Below, one piece after another: positions 36,688 to 55,300 of a DNA stretch of 64,000 nucleotides. The position numbers were made by a program, and so were the translations under genes. The stretch comes from Mobula hypostoma (Eukaryota): assembly GCF_963921235.1 (NCBI RefSeq), contig NC_086108.1, forward strand, positions 70,744,001 through 70,808,000. The letters run 5' to 3'. The notes beneath the pieces were generated by a model that saw only the letters and a program-made list of their open reading frames with translations, ran no database searches and had not been told where the DNA came from. Every line of letters begins with the position of its first letter. The first letter of the stretch is position 1.

Positions 36688-37284
36688 ACTTTATACTTTA
36701 TTATCGCCAAACAATTGATACTAGAACGTACAATCATCACAGCGATATTTGATTCTGCGCTTCCCACTCCCTGGATTACAAATATTAAAAATAGTAAAAA
36801 TTAGTAAATATTAGAAAATTAAATTATAAATCATAATTAGAAAATAGAAAAATGGAAAGTAAGGTAGTGCAAAAAAACCGAGAGGCAGGTCCGGATGTTT
36901 GGAGGTTACGGCCCAGATCCGGGTCAGGATCCGTTTAGCAGTCTATCACAGTTGGAAAGAAGCTGTTCCCAACTCTGGCCGTACGAGTCTTCAAGCTCCT
37001 GAGCCTTCTCCCAGAGGGAAGAGGGATGAAAAGTGTGTTGGCTGGGTGGGTCGTGTCCTTGATTATCCTGGCAACACTGCTCCGACAGCGTGCGGTGTAA
37101 AGTGAGTCCAAGGACGAAAGATTGGTTTGTGTGATGTGCTGTGCCGTGTTCACAATCTTCTGCAGCTTCTTTCGGTCTTGGAAAGGACAACTTCCATACC
37201 AGGTTGTGATGCACCCTAGAAGAATGCTTTCTATGGTGCATCTATAAAAATTAGTGAGGGTTTTAGGGGACAGGCCAAATTTCT
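36688..37284 (-). mobile_element. Rex1/Babar 3' fragment, same subfamily as 25174-27481
   Basis: Near-identical to 25174-25775. Confidence 0.93.
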
Positions 37285-37299
37285 GAGAAATACAGATTA

Positions 37300-39132
37300 C
37301 GGAGAAGGATGTGTTTGCTGTTGAAGCAAACTGGGATGGACAAATCCTCAGGGCCTGACAAGGTGTTCTCTTGGACCCAGTAGGAGGCTAGTGCAGAAAT
37401 TGCTGGGGCCCTAGCAGAGATATTTAAAACATTCTTGACCATGGGTGAGGTGCTGGAGGATTGAAGGGTAGCTAATGTTGTTCTCTTGTTTAAGCAAGGC
37501 TCTAAGAATAAGCTGGGATTTGTTTGCTGGTGAGCCTGATATCAGAAGGGAGTAAGTTACTGGAAAGTATTCTCAGTGACCAGATAGATAAGTATTTGAA
37601 CAGAGAGGGACTGATTAGAGGTAGTCAACATGGCTATGTGTATGCAAGGTTGTATCTAACCAATCTTAGAGACTTTCGAGTAAGTTTTTAGGAAAGTTGA
37701 TGAGAGCAAGGCGGTGGACTTGAGCAAGGCCCTTGACAAGGTCTCTCATGAGAGGCTGGTCAAGAAGCTTCAGGGACCTGGCATTCAGGATGAGGTAGTA
37801 AACTGGATTAGACATTGGCTTTGGAGAAGACAGAGTGGAAGCAGATGGTGGCCTCTCTGACTGCAGGGCTGTAATTAGTGATGTGGTGCAGGGACTGATG
37901 TTGGGTCCGTTGTTGTTTGTCATCTATATTAACGATCTGGATGATTATGTGGTAAACTCGATAGGCAAGTTTGCAGATGACACCAAGATTGGGGGTGTAG
38001 TGGACAGCAAGGTAGGCTATGAAAGCTTGCTGACGGATCTGAACCACCTAGAAAAAATGGCAGCTAGGATTCTGTCTATGGAAGTATGATGTGTTGCACT
38101 TTGGGAGGCCAAACCAAGGTAGGACTTGAACGGTGAGCAGTAGAACAGAAAGATCTGGGAATACAGATCCATAATTCCTTGAAAGTGGTGTTACAGGTAG
38201 ACGGAGTCTTAAAGAGGGCTTTTAACACATTAGCCTTTATAAACCAAAGTACTGAGTACAGGAGTTGACGATATTATGTTGAAGTTGTATAAGATGTTCT
38301 TGAGGCCTAATTTGGAGTGTGGCGTGCAGCCAAGTGGTTAAGGCATTGGACTAGCGATCTGAAGATTGTGAGTTCGAGCCCCAGCCACTGCAGTGTGTTG
38401 TGTCCTTGAGCAAGGCACTTAACCACACACTGCTCCAGTCCACCCAGCTGAAAATGGGTACTGGCAAAATGCTGGGGTCTAACCTCGCGATAGACTGGTG
38501 TCCTATCCGTGGGGGAGTCTAGTACTCTCAGTCGCTTTATGCCACGGAAACCAGCATAAGCACCGGCCTGATGAACCTATAAGGCTCAGGACTGTCTTTA
38601 GCTTTTAACTAATTTGGAGTATTGTGTGCAGTTCTGGTCACCAACCTACAGGAAAGGTATCAAAAAGTGCAGAGAAAATTTGCAAAGATGTTGCCAGGAC
38701 TTCAGGACCTGAGTAATCTGGAAAGGTTGAACAGGTCAGGAATTTATTCCCTTGAGCAAAGGAGAATGAGGGGAGATTTGATTGAGGTATACAAAATTGA
38801 GGGGTATAGATAGGGTAAATGCAGGTGGGGTTTATCCACTGAGATTAGTTGAAATTAGAACTAGAGGTCATAGTTTAAGGGTGAAAGGTGAAATGTTTAA
38901 GGGGAACATGAGAGGGAACTTCACTCAGAGGGTGAGCAAGTGTGGAACAAGCTGACAGCAGAAGTGATGGATGCGATTCAATTTCAACATTTAAGAGAAA
39001 GTTAGATAAGTACATGGATGGGAGGTATACGGAAGACTATGGTCTGGGTACAGGTCGATGAGACTAGGCAGAATAATAGCTCAACTTGGCCTAGATGGGC
39101 CAAAGGGCCTGTTTCCGTGCTGTAGTGTTCTA
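37300..39132 (+). mobile_element. Degraded CR1-type LINE
   Basis: [26 protein letters not shown] and RRMRGDLIEVYKI; 3' UTR ending gtgctgtagtgttcta. Confidence 0.88.
38319..38608 (+). mobile_element. tRNA-derived SINE with 12-bp TSD, nested in CR1
   Basis: A box agccaagtgg and B box gagttcgagcc; central gtgtccttgagcaaggcacttaacc; TSD CTAATTTGGAGT at 38307-38318 and 38609-38620. Confidence 0.9.
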
Positions 39133-42614: not shown

Positions 42615-43410
42615 AAAGAAGAGATTAGCTGCCCCCATCTGATACCACCAATGCCAACTTCCAACACATCCTGGAAGGATGCAAGACTGCGTTGTCCCTA
42701 GGGTGCTACATATAGCAGTACAACTAGCTCCTAAAGAAGCCAGCAGAGACCCTAGAGACCTGTGGGCGAGATGCAAGAAGCAGCCTTTCCGCAGCGGGAT
42801 GACAAATCATCCCATTTGTTAATGCTGGTAAGAGCGCTGAATGCACCTGTCCAAGATCTCCTTCAGGACTCCTCTCCACAGGCAAGGAGTGGAACATGAG
42901 GGCATATCTCGGCAGAGAGCTACAGTTCCCATGGAAATCACCACCACATCTCTCCACCCAGACATGATACTGTGGTCCAAGGCCACCAAGGGAGTCCTCC
43001 TCATTGAGTTACCCATCCTGTGGGAGGAAGGAACGGCTACCCATGAGTGGAAGGTGCTAAAGTACTCAGACCTGGCAGCTGAATGTAAGGAGCTGGCTGG
43101 AGGACCATCATCTACCCTGTGGAGGTAGGATGCTGGGGCTTCATCAGCGCATTGACGACAAGGTTATTCTGTGATATGGCAGTGACTGGGGTGAGGCTCA
43201 GGAGATCCACCGGACAGTTGTCTGAAGAGGCAGGAAAGGGCAGCTTTTGGCTGTGGCTGAGGAGGAAGGATAGAAATTGGGGGACTGACTAACCCCACTG
43301 GAAGCTGCAGGGGGAGGCAGGAAGATGTCCCACCACTGGAAGATATACCAGGGCTAAGAGGGTGAAACACCATTGAGTGGTGGTGCCTGGCTGATGACCC
43401 TTCTGCTGAC
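42615..43410 (+). mobile_element. Degraded HERO-type (RLE) non-LTR retrotransposon, 3' end
   Basis: ITTTSLHPDMILWS...LLIEL...KYSDLAAEC...PVEVGC...SFWLWLRRKD (PD-(D/E)xK-type restriction-like endonuclease); stop at 43290-43292, then a structured 3' UTR. Confidence 0.8.
43304..43406 (+). ncRNA. Candidate non-circularly permuted hammerhead-like RNA in HERO 3' UTR (decayed copy)
   Basis: AUA 43345-47, ccagg 43348-52, GAAAC 43364-68, cctgg 43386-90, CUGAUGA 43391-97; additional helices ccaccact/agtggtgg and gctgcaggg/cccttctgc. Confidence 0.5.
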
Positions 43411-46400
43411 ATAAGGACACTGCTGGATTTGTGGCAGGCAGCAATTCCAAGCAGGAAGCAACATCTTCCTGTAAATCACTTCGAGAATTATGTTGCTGCT
43501 ATAAAATAGCGATGGTTTGAAATCAATCTCTTTGAGCATTTTATTGGCTTTTAAAAGAAATTGCTATTGAGTTATGCAGATTAAATTTAAGATTTTGGTC
43601 ATCTTTAAAATCAATGCAAAATTTACTGCAGCAAAGTTTCCTAAAAGTACCTTCTGATATTTTTATAATTGCCCTCTCAGTTTATGCCAACTAAACAATG
43701 AAATCATAAGTTCAGCAGACTGATAAAACATTCATTTATCATGGAAGATAAAATGATGCTAGAGAAAGATTTCTATTTTTTTGTTGTTTTCAATGTTATG
43801 GGAAATTTTTGGCTTTCCTGAAAAATTCTTGGAAAATGCTTTGGCGCCAAATATCTGTGGGAAGCAATGTTTTTTCTTTGCTGTGTACAGGTGCACTAAA
43901 GACTTTGGTTCATTGTAACATGTAACTGAGGGACTTGTACAAGCATTTGGAATGATACTTGAAATTAGACCATGCAATTTGTTACTTTTTCCTCACATTG
44001 TGCTTAGTTTTTTTTTAAAAATTAAAGCTGTCTAAATTAAATTAAAATTGGTTTTATTCCATCGGTGGCCTATTATCCTATTTTGTCATTTTAGCACAAA
44101 AATGTTTTCTCTTTAAGTAACACGTTTGATGTTTTGGATGAGGCACATCCTTGGTACAGATAATGAGATGATCGCTGCCAACAGTACAAATGTATTGATC
44201 AATGATGCATGTAATGGCAGGATGTAGTGCCAATATTACAGTAATTATTCTTGTTCAATTTTCATGTAATGAATGAGACTTAAATAAAGTGCTGGTCTGC
44301 TTTAGAACTGCATGAATATACTGTAGTTGTAGTCATTTAGGAGCTGACAGATGATGTGATTAGTAAGAGTTTGGAACAAAGGCTTTAAGTAAGAACACCA
44401 GGATAATACAGAACGTTCAAATTGCAGTGTGGGAAATGAGTGCGTATACAGCTTTTAAAATTGTGAAGAATTTGGACAGAACTAATGAGGGGGAGTGAAC
44501 CAAAAATTGTCAAGAGATCAAAATGAGAGGCCAGGATTAATTTTGAGATTTTGTTTTTGAACTGAGATTAACAGAATCCAAAAACTTTGCAACTGTTAAG
44601 AAGAACATGAATAAATCTCACCAACACTATGGTATTACTTCACGGGTCAGGAGATCTACTGCCCTTGCGGTGCGTCTCTACACAGCTATGCAGCGAGTTA
44701 AACACCTTCTCAAAAATCACCCGAGATGGAAGCTTTCTTCAAGATTTTTAATGAGGTATTACTTATGAAGCTACAGAAAGTTAAGTAAAATACATATTAA
44801 ATTCAAAACCGGATCGTCGCTCACTTGTATATACTAATACTGCTGATAATTCTCACAACCAGTGTTAACACATGTGCATTACTCCATAACTATTTCATGT
44901 CAACAAGAGTAAACTATGGCACAATAATATCTTAATAATGATAAACAATAAACATTCACTTCCTTCAAAATATATCTACTAAATGCTTACCAATATTAAC
45001 AAAAACTTAAGACACAGAGATATTGCTGTTCCAAGGGCAAATATAGAGAGGATGGAGATGAATGCTTTTCCACTGTATGCTTCAACTCAAATCAAAATTA
45101 ACCTGCACAGGAAATGATGTAAAAAACAGATTACATACGAGAAGTGATGTTCATACAAAATGAACTGTGCCTCTAGAGGCCAGAACACTCCCTGCCTGGC
45201 ATCCATAGGATGTCAAACTTAACTACTGAAACTAAAATCAAATGATCATTTCAATGTCTTCAGTAAAAGAAGAATGGTCTGAGAGACTGGCCTTGAAAAC
45301 AGTCTTACTACACAGTCTTTAACCATTCTCATGTTGAAAATACCAGCCTTGATGATGTTCCTAGTGGGGATCAGCTAGGATCTATGTTAACCGTGAGGAG
45401 AGGGTAATTTGATTAACTTGGAGCCCTCTTCTGGCATGATCAGTTCTATTGTCTCTCCTGGGATGATCACATGCTACGTTGGATCCTATTATGTACATAA
45501 AAATAGAATCTCATTGTTTTATTAAATATATAACTAAGCACAACCTTGCTGTTGGTAAAGAACTTGATTTCATCTAGTTCTGTGTCCATCTCTTCAATTA
45601 CCTCTGCCATCTCAACTGCTAGAACAGCAGCATTGAGTTCAAGTCTTGGCATGGTGAGATCTTGTTTGGGAGCAACCTTTGCCTTGCCTAGGATGTTTCC
45701 AGCTTCATTATATCCAGTAGTGTATGTGACTTTCAGATATGCTGAAGTGCCTAAGGTCAACTTATTAACATGAAGCACCCCTGAGTACTGACTGGAGCAG
45801 CAGATCCAGGAGGGTCAAGTAGACTGTTGATAGCCGATAGCATGTCATGATGTCTTTCAATATCAGCGACCTGGAAAGTATGGGTGTCAGGAACGATGTC
45901 CCATCCAAGGCCCAAACTGCACTGCATCAGAGGGAGGCCCTGCCCAAGAATATCTGGTCTTTGGCCAGATCTTCAGAAGGGAAAGTTGCATGACCTCAAC
46001 ACTGCTGGATGCAATCTTATGCAGGCTGAGATCAGACTGTACCAGCATATCTTGTGCTGCTTTCAGCACGCTGACTGCTTCTTCTGCACTAGAAAATGAT
46101 TTAAGACCATCATTGTTTCAGTCCCGAATTCCTTCTCTCTCTCGATAGCTGTCCTCAAGGCCATAGATTGCCGCAGCTGGCAAGGGACAGTTACCAAACA
46201 CAAACTCTCACGTGGTACTCCAGAATCTTGTTGCCATCTGAGGTAGTTGCGATGATCCTCTCTCACTAGGAAGCTGTGCAACATTTGCTCAATGTTTGTC
46301 ATCACTATGATAGACGCAGTTCTGAAGTGCATGATGAGCCTGAGCAGACTGTTATGGAGGTCTGGACCTCGCGAGAGCACATTGTTCAATGATAGGCCTT

Positions 46401-46583
46401 TGAACTGTGCACTTGATCAAAGACAATTTGTATTCATGCAGATTTCTGAGCATGGTAAACACAAAAGTTGGGCAAATGCCAGATGCTTTGTGATCTACTG
46501 AGGGTGCTAAGTCAGCATGATTGTTCCTGAAGAGTCTCTCCATGAATTCCATGTAATGATCTTTCATTTCTGGCTGCCTTCTC

Positions 46584-46851
46584 TTTTTTCCATGCTTTTA
46601 CAAGGCGTGGAGCGAGAGAGAGAGAGAGACAGACAGACAGACACACACACACACAGCCCGTGTGGCGAGCCACTCCTCACACAGACATTTCGCAGTATTT
46701 TTCCCTTTTATTTTACAAGGTCGAGTTGCGATCTCAACACTCAACCCGGCACAGATGGAAAGCATACTCGGGAGTGGATCCGACTGGCTTCGAACCCGGG
46801 AACCTCCGTTCCAGAGTCGGGCGCCGATGTCGTTGCGCCACCAGCCGGCCC
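46584..46851 (-). mobile_element. tRNA-derived SINE with A tail and 15-bp TSD, nested in BEL
   Basis: Minus strand ggccggctggTGGCGCAACGA...GGTTCGAAGCC; (GT)/(CT) microsatellite near the 3' end; TSD TCTGGCTKCCTTCTC at 46569-46583 and 46852-46866. Confidence 0.9.
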
Positions 46852-48452
46852 TCTGGCTTCCTTCTCAATGTGGGACTGAGGGACATGAGTTGACTAAGGG
46901 CCTGTGCTCTGTTGTTTGGTAGGAGTTGTAACAGAGGGCAGAAAGGAAGGGAAGCTACACAACTGTTTGACTTGCCTTTGCTAAAATCTTTGTTCATGAT
47001 TCGAAGGAAGACCTCATCTTCGATGGAAGGTGCCAGCTCATAGTTATCTTCTGAGTGACAGTAGAGCAACTTTTCTAAATGCGGTTGAGCAGAGGCAAGT
47101 ATGTCAGGGAGCTTGGTTTTCTAACTTACAATCTTCTCTTCCATAGAGATTCTACTCTCACAACGTCTGAAATAATTTGGGCACCTGTTCTCCAGGACGT
47201 TCATCTTAAATGTGCTAACAGTGGGCTGATGAGCACCATCAAGGCAGACTTCACCCACTATGACCCAACCTCGGTCCGGTTGTTGGGCATAAGGTACATT
47301 GTGCCAACCATTGTGTTGTACACCTAGCCAATGTGCATGAATGTTCTCTGCGCAGAGCAACAGAATCTCAGCAGAAGGGTCAAGTGGAGAATCTTGTCTG
47401 CTATGGCCTTAAATAGTGAATGATTGCCTGCAGCTTCGGGGGTTAGAATTTCATCCCTGTTGTTGGGCATATGGTCCCACTGAATGAGGGCTGGCAAGGG
47501 TAAGCAGATCTCCATTCCTATTGACTCCATGACAAATCCACTAACTCTTCTTCCAGCAACTTCTGATGTTCTAGAACATGTCTTTAGAGTGTGTGGGGAA
47601 ACAGAACTTGTCAAAGGATGTTGATTTTTCCGATGACACAACCAATATCACATATGCCTTTTATTTTTCTTCAGGATGTCTTTTCGAGTAGAAACAGACT
47701 AGACGTATTTTTGAGCAAGATTTACCTTGCAGGCCTTTCTTGCATATCTCCGTGCATGAGGAAGTAGCTACACCTGACGGGTGCTCAGCTGACTCCTGCC
47801 ATGCTCTTCTGTGGGTGTGCTAGAACCGGTGCTGGCCCAGAATGAAGTGTTGAAATGTGTTGGTCACTGTTGCACTCAGTGCAATGTATGATAGCTTCAC
47901 AGCCTTTTGCTTGGTGTGTTGTTGAAGCACAATGTTCGAAACATATTGAGTGCTCTTTTAGAAAATGGTTTCGGTCTGTGAGCAGTTTTTCTACATTTGC
48001 TTAAAGGGTGAGGTTCTTACTGACAGGGCATTATTTATTGGGGTTCATGATAGTTTCCTACTTCAGTTCTGTTGACCGTGATAGGGGTTTTAGTTTTCCA
48101 TGCTTTTGCTGGAGAACTCTCTTTGAATAACATGTTATTGGAAGTTAAGAGCATAAAGCTGGGTTATTTCACTTTTTTATGTGGCAGCAGATGAATTCTG
48201 CAAAGAATGAAAATGACGGATCGGAGGCATGAGGCTTCATTTTATAGTTGGACCACTCCATTGTCTACTGTTCTTGCATATTGTTGTGTAGTTTCTCCAC
48301 CACAGGGGTTATTCCTCTTACTATATCCAAGAAACTCAGCCCTGGTGGGTAACCCTTGTTTTTGGTGGCTTTCAGTTCCAACAGCAGGTCCCAAAGCTCC
48401 TGTAGCTTCTGTGGTTCTTTGTGTGAGAGTTTTGGAAAATTATGAATTCTAC

Positions 48453-49230
48453 TGTGTACATACATCTATTGATGCTTCTGGACACATCTTCAGTGATGTT
48501 CCTGGAATCATCGGGTGTTTCGGGTCTTTCAACATCATACAACCTCCTCCAGGTGACCCAGCCGGGGCTGATCAGACCCCAGCTTGTGTCCAGATGGCTA
48601 GCTACTTATGACTCCATGGCTCCCCTCTTTTGAGCCACAGCCATCTTGAGGCCCTCTCTGCCACATCGGTGGTACTGCGGATGGCTCTCCTCTTCCTCTC
48701 TCCCTTGATGCCCAAAATGCTGAAGGCTCTAACTAAAGACCAGGCTACGAATCCCCTACAACCATCCTCCACTGGGAGACACCTCGCTCCCCATCCAGCC
48801 TGCTGACAGTTGCTGACCAGCCCTGCGTAATTGGAGAGCTTCCTTTCAAAGGCCTCTTCCAAGCTATCTTCCCATGGGACTGTCAGCTCCAGCAGCACCA
48901 CTTGCTTAGTAGACTCAGACACTAGGACAATGTCTGGTCGCAGGGTGGTGGCTGTGATATGGTTGGGGAACTTCCGCTGCCCTTCGAGGTCCACCAACAG
49001 CTGCCAGTCCCTTGCAGAGGTCAGAATGCCTGCAGATGTTCTTTTGGCAGGTATTGGCTGCTCCCCAGCTCTGACAAAGGCAATGGTCTGCTTGGAGGGT
49101 CGGGACCGCTTCGCCCACTCAACTCCTGCGCTGACGGCTTCAGCGCTGGTCTTCAGGACCTGATCGTGCCTCCACCTGTACCGTCCCTCACCAAGTGCCC
49201 TTGCGCAGCCGCTGAGGATGTGCTCCAGGG
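48453..49230 (-). mobile_element. HERO-type (RLE) non-LTR retrotransposon, 5'-truncated, nested in BEL gag
   Basis: RYRWRHDQVL...LRPDIVLVSESTKQVVLLELTVPWE...ERKLSNY...SRWLWLKR; stop at 48602-48604; probable TSD TTCYAC at 48447-48452 and 49231-49236. Confidence 0.9.
48478..48593 (-). ncRNA. Candidate non-circularly permuted hammerhead-like RNA in HERO 3' UTR
   Basis: Minus strand: ctggacaca-[hairpin]-gggtc-a-cctgga-ggaggtt-GTA-tgatgtt-gaaa-gaccc-GAAACaccc-gatgat-tccagg-aacatca-CTGAAGA-tgtgtccag. Confidence 0.65.
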
Positions 49231-51522
49231 TTCCACGGAAGAGATATTTTCAAATGCCTCTGGAGAGCCATTACATTTGTCTAGCCTCTGCGACAGTATT
49301 TGTAAACCAGTGGCTGGATTATTAACGCGCAATGCCCGAACTCTTCTTGCATATTGCAGCTTCTCCCCACCATTCACTTACAGAGAAGGTCTAACTCTTC
49401 GCTAGGTTTGAGACATAGTCCTTCCATGGCATCGTGAAAGCTTGACTTCCAGGACAGACAACTGGCCGACTGATTGTTGAGCACTTTTAGTCCTGCTGTG
49501 ACTAGGTCTCGATGACCCAGATACCAAGCCTAATCTGATACACCTGAACTCCAGAATGAGAGCACGTGGAGACTGTGTCCTGGGATGGATGGAAGTTCAG
49601 TCTGTCCATGTCTGTGCAGAAGGAGTTGGCATCTATAGCAATTCTTGACTCATGTTCTTGCTGTGGTAGAACTGCAGAAGAGGGTGTTGTGGGTCTTTGC
49701 TGATGTAGACCTTGATTGTTAATGACTGGACTGTGTGAAAGGCATGTTGGCCATGTGGTGTGGACAGCTTCTCCTTGCAGAGCTAGAGCATTCTCTCTTA
49801 TAGCCAAAATATGTAAGGTTCATTGGCTTGTTGTGACAGCAAAGTATGATTGACTCCTGTTATAGACTCACCACCACCTCAGTCAGCTGCTGCTTCACAC
49901 AACTTTGCCTCTGTGGAGGCAGTCTCAACTTCACAATCCACCTTGCGCCACACTTAATATAGCCTCTACACACGCTCTCTCCATGTCTACACCAGCTTTC
50001 TCTATTTGCATCTCAACTTCACCTTCAGCATACACTCCTTTCTTTGTTGCTGCTTCAGCTCCGGCCTGAGCTCATGCTGCAGCTATGCTAATAATGGTTT
50101 TGCCCCAGTATTGCAAAGATGCCATCGGTGAGCCCCATTCTGACCTAACTTCCAGGCATCAGCAATCGACGTTGTTCAGGTTGGAATCTGACATTATCAT
50201 TTATGGCATTCAGATGCTTCTCCAGTCCGTGGGAGATGGTTTAAGACCATAAGACATAGGAGCAGTATTAGGCTACTCCACCATTCCATCGTGGCTGCTA
50301 CCGGATCTCACTCAACCTCATACACCTGCCCTCTCAGCATATCCTTTGATGCCCTGACTGATTGGGAGACAGAGTTTTGAAGCTGAGTTATCTTTTCACT
50401 CTACTGCCTTAGCTATGCGTCTCCACACAGCTATGTGGCAAGTTAAACACTTTCTCAAAAATCACCAGAGACAGAAGCTTTCTTCAGGGTTATTTTTGTG
50501 TAATATTACTTGTGAAATTACAATAAGTTAAGTAAACTATGTATTAAATTCAATACAGGATTGTCGCTCGCCTGAATACTGTTTACCAATACTGCTGATT
50601 ATTCTCACAACCAGTGTTAACACATATGCAACACTCCACAACTGTGCCACATAAACAAGAGTAAATTTGTGGGTTAATGATATCTTAATAACAATAAATG
50701 ATAAACATAACACTTCCTTTAAAATGTATCTAGTAAATGCTCACCAATATTAAGAAAAACTTAGTGTACACAGACATTGCTGTTTCAAGGGCAAATAAAG
50801 AGAGGATGGAGATGGATGTTTTTCCACCGCGTGCTTCAAATCATATCAAAATTAACCCGTGCAGGAAATGACTTTAAGAGCAGCTTATCTACAGAAGTGA
50901 TACTCGTAAAAATTGAACTGTGCCTCAGGAGGCCAGAACAGGTGGCATCTGTAGAAAGAGACAGAATCAACGTTTCAGATTATCAGAACTGGAAAACTGA
51001 GGAATTATGTTCGTTTTAAGTTGTGGAGTGGGTGAAGGAAGATGAGACCGACAGGAAAGCGGTTGGTGAATTATTTGTACACTGTTCATAACGTACAAGT
51101 TGAGTGGTAGAATCAGGGAAGGAAAAATTGGTGGTTGATGATCGACACACAGTGGGCAAAGGACCTGCTTCTATGGCCAGCCTCCTTATAACTCTCCCTG
51201 ATGAGGGAGGAGGTAGTTGGGCAGGATTGCTGTAGTGACTTGTTACTAATGAAGTTTTGTAGATGATCCATTAATGAGAGATTTTAAAGAGAGAAAAAAA
51301 CCAAAGGGACAAATAAAAGCTGTGAAATACAAATCAGAGCAGTTGCAGGGAACTGAAATCAAAAACAATGTTGTAAATATCCAGCAGCTCAGCTAGTGTC
51401 CATGGAGAGAGATAGAACTAGGTTGACATTAATATTGATTGTTTCCTTTCTACTGAGTTGCAGCAAAGTGGTAAAAATCAATATGTTTAGAGGGATCTGA
51501 GGCAAAACATTTTGATCAAGTG

Positions 51523-54539: not shown

Positions 54540-55300
54540 AGGTTCAATTTAATGTCAGAGAAATGTATCCAATATACATCCTGAAATGCTTTTCTTCACA
54601 AAAACATCCATGAAAACAAAGAAGTGCCCCAAAGAATGAACGACAGTTAAACGTGAGAACCCCAAAGTACCCCCCCAGCTTCCCCCTCCAGCGCATAAGC
54701 GGCGGTGAGCAACAATCCCCACCGACAAAACAAAAAGCGCACCCGCTACTGAGCACAAGCATGAGCTAAGCGATAGCAAAGACACAGGCCTTACAGTTAC
54801 CCCAAAGACTATCACAATTCATCCGGCATTTGGCAACCCTAATAAGGGAGAGGGAAGAGTTCCCCATTTTCACAGCAAGTGGGAGACATAACATGTTAAA
54901 AAGTCTGTTTCATCGCTTTTTACGAGCTCTGTGCCCGAAGATCGCAAAGATCTCGGGCCTTCGGGCCCACAGTGAAAGATTTTCCAGCCTCCCTGATGAC
55001 ACACAAGTCTCCAGCCATGACACCGACCCTCAATCCGCCCATCTCCAGAGCCCCAACATCTTAGGCTTCCAAACACTAGGCCACCTCTCAGGCCAATCCC
55101 TTGGTGTGCTGAACATCGGCTGGTCCTGAAACTCCAAGAACAGGTCCCATTCCTGCAAAGAACCGAAGTCAGCATGTAACTCCAGGTCCGGGTCTTTGAA
55201 AGAACCCTGAAAGGGAAAAATAAAGATATTAAAGATGGAAGTAGAGCTGTTTCCGAAGACGCAAGCAAAGGAGTCACTGTTTAGTGCCATCTTAACTCCA
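54540..55300 (-). mobile_element. Non-coding, non-autonomous retroelement (AAGATGGC start, Rex1-like tail)
   Basis: Minus strand starts gagttAAGATGGCactaaac and ends ctgacattaaattgaacctt. It interrupts CR1 ORF2 and has no recognisable ORF. Confidence 0.55.

Follow-up and report, generated by a model that had tools for sequence, protein, structure and literature searches.

A decayed copy of a conserved 3' UTR RNA of HERO-like retrotransposons, predicted to form a split-core hammerhead

Retrotransposon sequences at the locus

The window analyzed here is the whole stretch of 64,000 nucleotides from Mobula hypostoma, and positions without a locus name refer to it. Positions 42641..43292 of the forward strand encode the broken 3' end of the ORF of an RLE-type LINE, with the zinc knuckle and endonuclease region. 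This ORF is frameshifted and closes with a TAA at 43290-43292; the remnant was matched by three tblastn pieces in different frames, 47-55% identical to protein P0102, and it has in-frame stops and the motifs LHPDMIL and IELPILWEE. The RNA motif that is the subject of this study (43304..43406, forward strand) lies behind this stop codon in the 3' UTR, as an earlier note on this DNA had placed it. The host elements are called HERO-like here, after the clade to which we assume them to belong.

A second element, of another family, lies on the minus strand, where its C-terminal ORF piece (48602..49249) is open over 215 amino acids. Used as the query for relatives, this ORF found 352 of them; the closest named one was from a ray (92%), and the other named protein relatives were from bony fishes and a lancelet. 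There was no relative of the element protein in viral contigs and no match to it by sequence in the PDB. Four loci were found in prokaryote genomes, three of them on tiny contigs without a 3' UTR and the fourth distant (34%), with the motif absent. Three very short contigs in bacterial records (L081, L082, and L084) carry animal-type retrotransposon pieces and are probably host contamination.

Residues P105, D106, E121, K137, and Y141 were invariant in 40 proteins, and the conserved residues are presumably those of a zinc knuckle and a restriction-like nuclease (RLE motifs). The zf-RVT domain scored slightly below the cut-off in two of the three relatives tested, L028 and L036 encode the RT motif FMDD within that one open frame, and downstream tandem partners encode CxCG..H fingers. 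The one-ORF RLE layout, with an N-terminal zinc finger, an RT, a zinc knuckle, and a PD..(D/E)xK-type nuclease, was thus recovered; the domain layout of RLE elements was taken from a published reference (PMC4640811).

Two other remnants were seen by eye on the minus strand of the window, a decayed RT and RNase H piece at 45467-47120 and the decayed tail of a LINE at 36935-37387. These were taken to be BEL/Pao-like and of the CR1/Rex type, respectively.

The decayed copy of the RNA

The earlier note had described a hammerhead-like arrangement of short motifs, all of which were found in the window sequence. The outer-helix 5' strand GCUGCAGGG starts at 43304, GUCC is at 43327, CCACCACU is at 43330, AUA is at 43345-43347, CCAGG runs from 43348, GGGU from 43360, and GAAAC from 43364, AGUGGUGG starts at 43376, CCUGG is at 43386, and CUGAUGA is at 43391. 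The order and register of the helices, as established in the relatives described below, assign these motifs to the following parts, all on the forward strand.

The 5' strand of the outer helix P0 (43304..43312) pairs with 43398-43406 at seven of nine positions, the count that had been claimed. This 3' strand (43398..43406) stands directly behind A9, and by its pairing it is not a stem II strand. Positions 43313..43331 hold the 5' arm and loop of a hairpin, H, placed by alignment with five relatives; its loop palindrome, GACGUC, has become GAUGUC in this copy, and its 3' arm is lost. The loss is due to a deletion of about 12 nt net at 43331..43333, which removed that 3' arm together with the stem II 5' strand. 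The 5' strand of helix Y, which bridges stems I and II, lies at 43333..43338 in the register of the family and pairs with 43378-43383 at six of six positions, two of them G-U. Next, at 43342..43347, come the stem III 3' strand, which makes three of six pairs, and AUA as the NUH triplet; by analogy with hammerheads, the cut of this copy, if it were made, would fall between 43347 and 43348. Behind the triplet, the first strand of stem I (43348..43353) makes five of six pairs with 43385-43390. The 3' strand of stem II (43359..43363) is mutated and has no partner left, and it is followed by the GAAA core block with the 5' strand of stem III (43364..43371), the 3' strands of helix Y and stem I (43378..43390), and the CUGAUGA core block (43391..43397). 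The remaining 3' UTR (43407..43477) is common to the five relatives; the 3' end of the family is near 43477, and loose contig ends were found behind 43477 in all four genome runs.

Contigs of the four genome runs were compared over 43150-43500, and the results given here are those for the contigs listed, whose depth does not measure copy number. The check proposed in the earlier note, whether related sequences restore stem III and the triplet, came out in its favor: copies with G at 43345, which makes the triplet GUA, and U at 43370 have all five of five stem III pairs, and the A to G change at 43345 was present in 3-8 of the contigs listed for each of the four runs. Related copies with G at 43402 and A at 43404 complete P0 (nine of nine pairs), and C at 43385 adds the sixth pair of stem I. 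Other differences among related copies include 43359 A to G and 43361 G to A in the 3' strand of stem II, and, in some copies, 43326 T to C in hairpin H.

In each of the four runs, listed contigs (20, 10, 11, and 10) diverged from the window copy behind 43331. Behind this position the diverging contigs have extra letters, which supply GCUCC for stem II and the missing 3' arm of H, and alignment of five outside relatives revealed the same gap in the window copy. Neither this deletion nor the palindromic hairpin had been noticed before. They overturn the proposal that GUCC pairs weakly with GGGU as stem II, for which the decayed copy offers four pairs, of which two are G-U. Family-wide, GUCC spans the last letters of the H loop and the first of the H 3' arm, and the strand before GAAA has its real partner in GCUCC, lost from the decayed copy. 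The helix that had been drawn between CCACCACU and AGUGGUGG does form eight of eight pairs, but it is 3 nt off the register of the family, in which 43333-43338 pair with 43378-43383.

An arrangement of NUH, five Watson-Crick pairs of stem I, GAAA, and CUGANGA arose in 16 of 100,000 dinucleotide shuffles of 43285-43420, which answers the concern that shuffled sequences might often produce it. A profile made from 41 outside loci, with the window copies excluded, gave exactly two hits at E ≤ 1 in the 64 kb window, at 43329-43399 (E = 7.1e-11) and at 48485-48562 on the minus strand (E = 3.5e-14). By single-sequence folding, which is blind to pseudoknots, the folding energy of the decayed copy was no better than that of shuffles (z = -0.11). 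The copy at 43304-43406 fails the strict structure pattern described below, and Rfam had no match in the whole window at gathering scores. A weak pattern match at 54927-55000 on the forward strand (score 36, compared with 49 for real members) had no profile hit and is probably due to chance. The decayed copy had been read as old and probably inactive, and this reading holds: because the partner of stem II is gone and stem III is broken, with three of six pairs, the copy is probably dead.

Conservation of the RNA among relatives

The best 80 of 359 metagenome relatives were fetched. Selection was by protein alone and so independent of the RNA, but many of the loci come from a few metagenomes and do not sample the clade at random. 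Seventy-seven of the 80 loci reached the end of the ORF, and 70 had at least 135 nt behind it. The strict pattern, which demands the exact core words and four helices, was passed by 53 of these 70 relatives. Eleven further relatives matched the sequence profile, and L071 could be parsed with one core mismatch. L009, L037, and L047 were cut short or deleted within the motif, and L064 had no trace of it. In L075 the whole architecture was seen by eye about 620 nt downstream of the ORF (L075:2660-2795), and there an additional hairpin separates helix Y from stem III. The sequence of L009 ends 7 nt past the predicted cut, about 90 nt behind the end of the ORF, which is a single case.

The same pattern was passed by none of 14,000 shuffles and had no site in 349,675 control nucleotides (reverse strands and coding parts). 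Among 120 viral loci with both core words in the same order, two passed at the level of two helices and none passed the full pattern. Comparison of Rfam with 13 intact loci gave just four weak, unrelated matches (E 1.9-4.9). The folding z-scores of three intact relatives were -4.06, -3.63, and -1.61.

Covariation was counted in 41 loci with less than 85% core identity, chosen from 52 exact parses, whose proteins are 31-82% identical. The strict pattern picks registers by pairing, which inflates counts made on those registers, whereas the MAFFT alignment of the 41 loci was unguided and its columns are free of this bias, its rows being chosen by the pattern. Over the 41 loci, 95.1% of the 712 cells of stems I, II, III, and helix Y were standard pairs, with 210 two-sided changes, compared with 36-45% paired when the partners were slid by 1-3 columns. 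Stem I was paired in 98.8% of its cells in the family, stem II in 96.6%, stem III in 96.9%, and helix Y in 87%. On the protein tree, changes in paired columns coincided with a mean of 0.85 over 12 pairs, compared with a mean of 0.36 and a maximum of 0.75 over 394 control column pairs; the registers in this comparison came from the pairing-rewarding pattern and are biased toward pairing. The 10.1/11.1 pair had no joint change in four on the protein tree. GAAA was invariant in alignment A2, the rows of which were selected for an exact core. G-U pairs outnumbered A-C mismatches (20 to 3), which indicates that the element strand read here is the folded strand.

The helices are wired in an unusual order. 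The strand before GAAA pairs with a segment 19-20 nt upstream of the triplet in 38 of the 41 loci, in a search restricted by distance to offsets of 13-26. The strand after CUGANGA pairs instead with the 5'-most segment, forming P0, in which 24-26 of 26 relatives are paired at each of the nine positions. Hairpin H sits between P0 and stem II. P0 and H were located independently and had no spacer between them in 26 of the 41 loci, with no other gap occurring more than twice; the remaining 15 loci, which include short or decayed hairpins, failed this test and were outside the palindrome count. From 5' to 3', covariation gives the strand order P0a, H, IIa, Ya, IIIb-NUH-Ia, IIb-GAAA-IIIa, Yb, Ib-CUGANGA, and P0b.

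A palindromic hexamer was found inside H in 25 of the 26 hairpins, compared with 15% of control windows. There were seven kinds: UGAUCA in 12, UGGCCA in seven, GACGUC in two, and four others once each; several deeper lineages have no palindrome in H. Such switching between self-complementary sequences is what a kissing-loop dimer signal would be expected to show.

The claim of the earlier note that this is a clade-wide, conserved RNA is supported by the covariation within the family, the shuffles, and the profile match. From these sequence comparisons, that the conserved RNA structure is real can be regarded as virtually certain.

The second copy in the window

The second element carries a nearly intact copy of the RNA on the minus strand at 48477..48594, which passes the strict pattern (folding z = -2.51). 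Here P0 is formed by 48594-48585 with 48486-48477, hairpin H by 48584-48560 with the loop UGAUCA, and stem II by 48559-48555 with 48526-48522, and the core consists of GUA at 48540-48538, GAAA at 48521, and CUGAAGA at 48493. The two window copies therefore do share one topology, as had been suspected from their letters. Stem III of the second copy has one C-U mismatch that is common to most related copies and was repaired in just 7% of the depth in genome run X1 and 24% in run X5. The 3' end of this second family is at 48451-48452.

By eye, the stem I and stem II letters of the second family and of the type-SGC hammerhead HRIMA-1 look alike (UGAUGUU/AACAUCA and GACCC, at 48537-48494 on the minus strand, compared with AUGUU/AACAU and GGACC in the available part of PMC10085705). 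At most loci, in elements of many families, the 3' end comes just past a UGUAU word, about 30-40 nt behind the motif and without poly(A); in the second family this word lies at 48452-48465 on the minus strand.

The hammerhead core

The core letters CUGANGA, GAAA, and UH are present in the decayed copy and exact in 53 of the 70 relatives. In the family, stems I-III flank the core, with an A15.1-U16.1 pair and mostly G10.1-C11.1 (G10.1 in 37 and C11.1 in 36 of the 41 loci). N7 is free, having changed 13 times on the tree. Position 17 changed 18 times on the tree of the 41 loci, among U, C, and A, and was G in none of the 56 unfiltered loci. In one family (L019:2224-2288 and L024:2174-2238), CUGANGA is replaced by UUGAAGA, with U in place of C3. 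Comparative analysis of this kind makes self-cleavage by the intact members likely, and the cut would be made after NUH.

The same letters could belong to a hammerhead-shaped scaffold that cuts little or not at all and serves as a binding site for the RT-endonuclease and as a dimerization signal. The 3' UTR of R2 binds its own protein, and GUU, which is a poor hammerhead triplet, is the commonest triplet here (23 of 56 loci). This triplet, the family-level U3, and the stem III mismatch of the second family count against cutting and fit such a scaffold, as do the split core, the retention of both halves in all copies, and the palindromic loop that covaries over seven hexamers. However, the letters that are fixed and those that are free match hammerhead catalysis. 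The pattern at position 17 in particular counts against a scaffold because a binding site has no obvious need to avoid G there through 18 changes. A scaffold that hardly cuts is thus considered unlikely.

Head-to-tail tandems and the fate of the cut RNA

The 5' end of another element followed 99-148 nt past the predicted cut in 13 of the 52 loci (L014, L018, L023, L031, L035, L036, L039, L042, L050, L052, L056, L069, and L074), compared with one of 196 control windows. These head-to-tail tandems included seven of 13 with a zinc-finger ORF start downstream. Two further tandems (L005 and L048) were seen by eye. In the one tandem for which both partners were available, L036 is followed by L028 on one contig; both have open ORFs and the loop palindrome UGGCCA, but they belong to two families, 72% identical, which one rolling circle could not join, and this tandem counts against the cut-and-rejoin route.

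A second conserved pseudoknot-like unit, covarying by eye, was noticed near the 5' end of the element, overlapping the ORF start. It occurs about 200-290 nt behind the motif in the downstream elements of L005, L014, L018, L036, L042, L052, L056, and L074, with a peptide like EYPQGLPRGGEDE, and it recalls the 5' pseudoknot of R2 RNA.

All solo copies retain both sides of the predicted cut site, which means that their template was uncut, was rejoined, or was jumped, and an uncut template explains this retention equally well. Among the contig ends listed, no clear accumulation was seen at the cut: 48537 had loose ends in 20 contigs of run X1, whose consensus is that of a sister family with the triplet GUC, and in three contigs of run X21, which were mixed, and there were none at 43348. 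No locus had a second profile hit.

A mechanism that would account for these features can be proposed. P0 and H would stack on each other and cross the stack of stems II and III as a perfect four-way junction, which would keep A9 and G10.1 adjacent though unjoined. The RNA would then cut after NUH, at 43347 in the decayed copy and, in the second family, some 86 nt upstream of the 3' end. The two predicted products are joined by 22-34 base pairs, so they would remain bound to each other and re-ligation would be favored. In head-to-tail arrays, two successive cuts would release a unit-length RNA, the ends of which could join; if such a sealed or circular molecule were then copied, neither half of the ribozyme would be lost and tandems would result. 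The palindromic loop would likely pair two RNAs by loop-loop kissing. The head-to-tail tandems suggest cut-and-rejoin templates. Taken as a whole, the main reading is that 43304..43406 is a decayed copy of a conserved 3' UTR RNA of HERO-like elements, predicted to be a split-core hammerhead that likely cuts and rejoins the RNA of its element, and we give this reading a probability of roughly 0.6. For the cut-and-rejoin role taken by itself, the odds are about even.

The tandems can also be read without any rejoining. Cutting would then release the following tandem unit at its 5' end, as the HDV-like ribozyme does for R2, possibly aiding its translation, or would limit transcripts, and new copies would derive from the few transcripts left uncut or from template jumping over the nick. 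Self-cleavage alone is able to drive cap-independent translation, according to the available part of PMC13725137, and the frequency of tandems, the zinc-finger ORF starts downstream, and the mixed-family tandem with its open ORFs are all compatible with this role. The 22-34 bp that would hold the products together argue against it. Furthermore, the similarity of downstream 5' ends tracks that of the upstream elements (11 loci, rho = 0.40, Mantel p = 0.002), as self-tandems would lead one to expect; shared hosts are a confounder of this comparison. Cutting without rejoining is judged improbable, and cut-and-rejoin remains the preferred reading.

Relation to type-SGC hammerheads

The nearest known RNAs are the type-SGC hammerheads, HRIMA-1 and its variants (Eckert et al. 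2023, PMC10085705). In the available part of that paper they are reported to cleave in vitro at 0.007-0.19 per minute, and to be found only in metatranscriptomes and in none of the genomes of known organisms. The HERO-like RNA shares with them the block order S-G-C, a short linker between stem I and stem II strands, and a helix bridging the other strands of stems I and II; judged by eye from the SGC-1 oligonucleotides, the cyclic order of the strands is equal as well. They differ in that the stem II strand of type-SGC hammerheads stands behind CUGANGA, whereas that of the HERO-like RNA lies 5' of the whole core, P0 and H filling the step between A9 and G10.1. A stem II strand 0-2 bases behind CUGANGA, as expected of a hammerhead, is thus absent, with two helices in between. 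Block C (stem I strand, CUGANGA, stem II strand) is not intact, so the RNA is not a member of type SGC. It lies outside type SGC and types I-III as these are defined, and by analogy it is predicted to work like a hammerhead. In structural terms, the fold may be described as a type-SGC-like hammerhead opened between A9 and G10.1 by the predicted four-way junction.

Eckert et al. assumed that the CUGANGA block cannot be broken, and their search patterns demand CUGAUGAG or CUGAUGAUG followed by stem II (available part of PMC10085705). These patterns cannot match a split-core RNA because they require the stem II strand behind block C. An extra U after CUGAUGA is allowed in the type-SGC pattern (PMC10085705), and an unpaired base stands between 9 and 10.1 in the hammerheads of Penelope-like elements (PMC4209133); as far as the available parts of these sources go, the step between A9 and 10.1 tolerates insertion, since one extra base is natural there. 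In the literature covered, which left subscription papers and Repbase Reports outside its scope, there was no description of a hammerhead in the 3' UTRs of HERO or other RLE elements, nor was there any experimentally tested hammerhead in which two helices separate A9 from G10.1. The available parts of PMC3088659 and PMC10162972 contained no helix inserted at this step.

In view of the shared block order, an ordinary type-SGC fold was also considered, in which stem II would use either the strand after CUGANGA or the GUCC and GGGU segments; in the decayed copy alone GAGGGU could pair with ACCCUU across A9 and GUCC with GGGU. In the relatives, a stem II made from the strand after CUGANGA was paired in 43.9% of 123 cells, compared with 42.3% when shuffled; 161 of 500 shuffles were as high, the first pair was present in six of the 41 loci, and in its two registers 96 and 114 of 205 cells were paired. 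This contradicts the first form of the proposal, and the place of GUCC within hairpin H in the family contradicts the second, so that an ordinary type-SGC fold is very improbable. Chance motifs in a decayed repeat, suggested by the folding energy of the window copy and its failure to pass the strict pattern, are refuted by the shuffles (16 of 100,000), the profile match (E = 7.1e-11), and the family-wide covariation.

Comparison with ribozymes of other retroelements

Penelope-like elements combine a hammerhead with head-to-tail tandems, palindromes, and dimers (Cervera and de la Pena 2014, PMC4209133), and the route proposed for them, in which RNA is cut, circularized or joined, and copied as more than one unit (PMC4209133), resembles the one suggested here. 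In the available part of that work, as in the HERO-like elements, the hammerhead belongs to an autonomous retroelement with head-to-tail tandems and palindromes. The Penelope-like hammerheads differ in that they are of the minimal type-I form, lie in repeats flanking GIY-YIG elements, and dimerize through stem III, whereas stem III of the HERO-like RNA is a full pseudoknot helix of 5-6 bp, the palindrome belongs to a hairpin of its own, and an RLE LINE is the host.

HDV-like ribozymes are present in R2 and other non-LTR elements, according to the available parts of PMC13725137 and PMC7650587. The shared feature would be a self-cleaving RNA that frees a LINE from a longer transcript, cleavage being a prediction in the HERO-like case, and the fold of the HDV-like ribozymes, so far as these sources describe it, is different. 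The HDV-like ribozymes of non-LTR elements sit at the 5' end, whereas the HERO-like RNA is in the 3' UTR, within the part that must be copied. The natural hairpin ribozyme uses a perfect four-helix junction as a scaffold beside its catalytic core; its core differs from that of the HERO-like RNA, for which the four-way junction is predicted from helices that meet without a spacer.

Implications

If the intact members cleave, this RNA would break the published rule by which the CUGANGA block is inseparable from its two helix strands, and it would add a hammerhead architecture that is invisible to block-based searches. Non-circularly permuted hammerheads would move from unplaced metatranscriptome RNAs to high-copy elements of animal genomes, and a ribozyme would sit within LINE sequence that has to be copied. 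We would further speculate, at somewhat less than even odds, that this is a LINE clade with an active split-core, non-circularly permuted hammerhead that cuts tandem transcripts and forms circles and kissing dimers, with replication through circular or dimeric RNA as in Penelope-like elements and retrozymes. The decayed copy in the window is a pointer only, and the intact relatives are the copies of interest. With cleaving copies, a direct test would be possible of how RLE elements define the ends of their RNA and how tandem arrays are formed, which also matters for retrotransposon-based gene insertion, a method limited by the design of UTRs.
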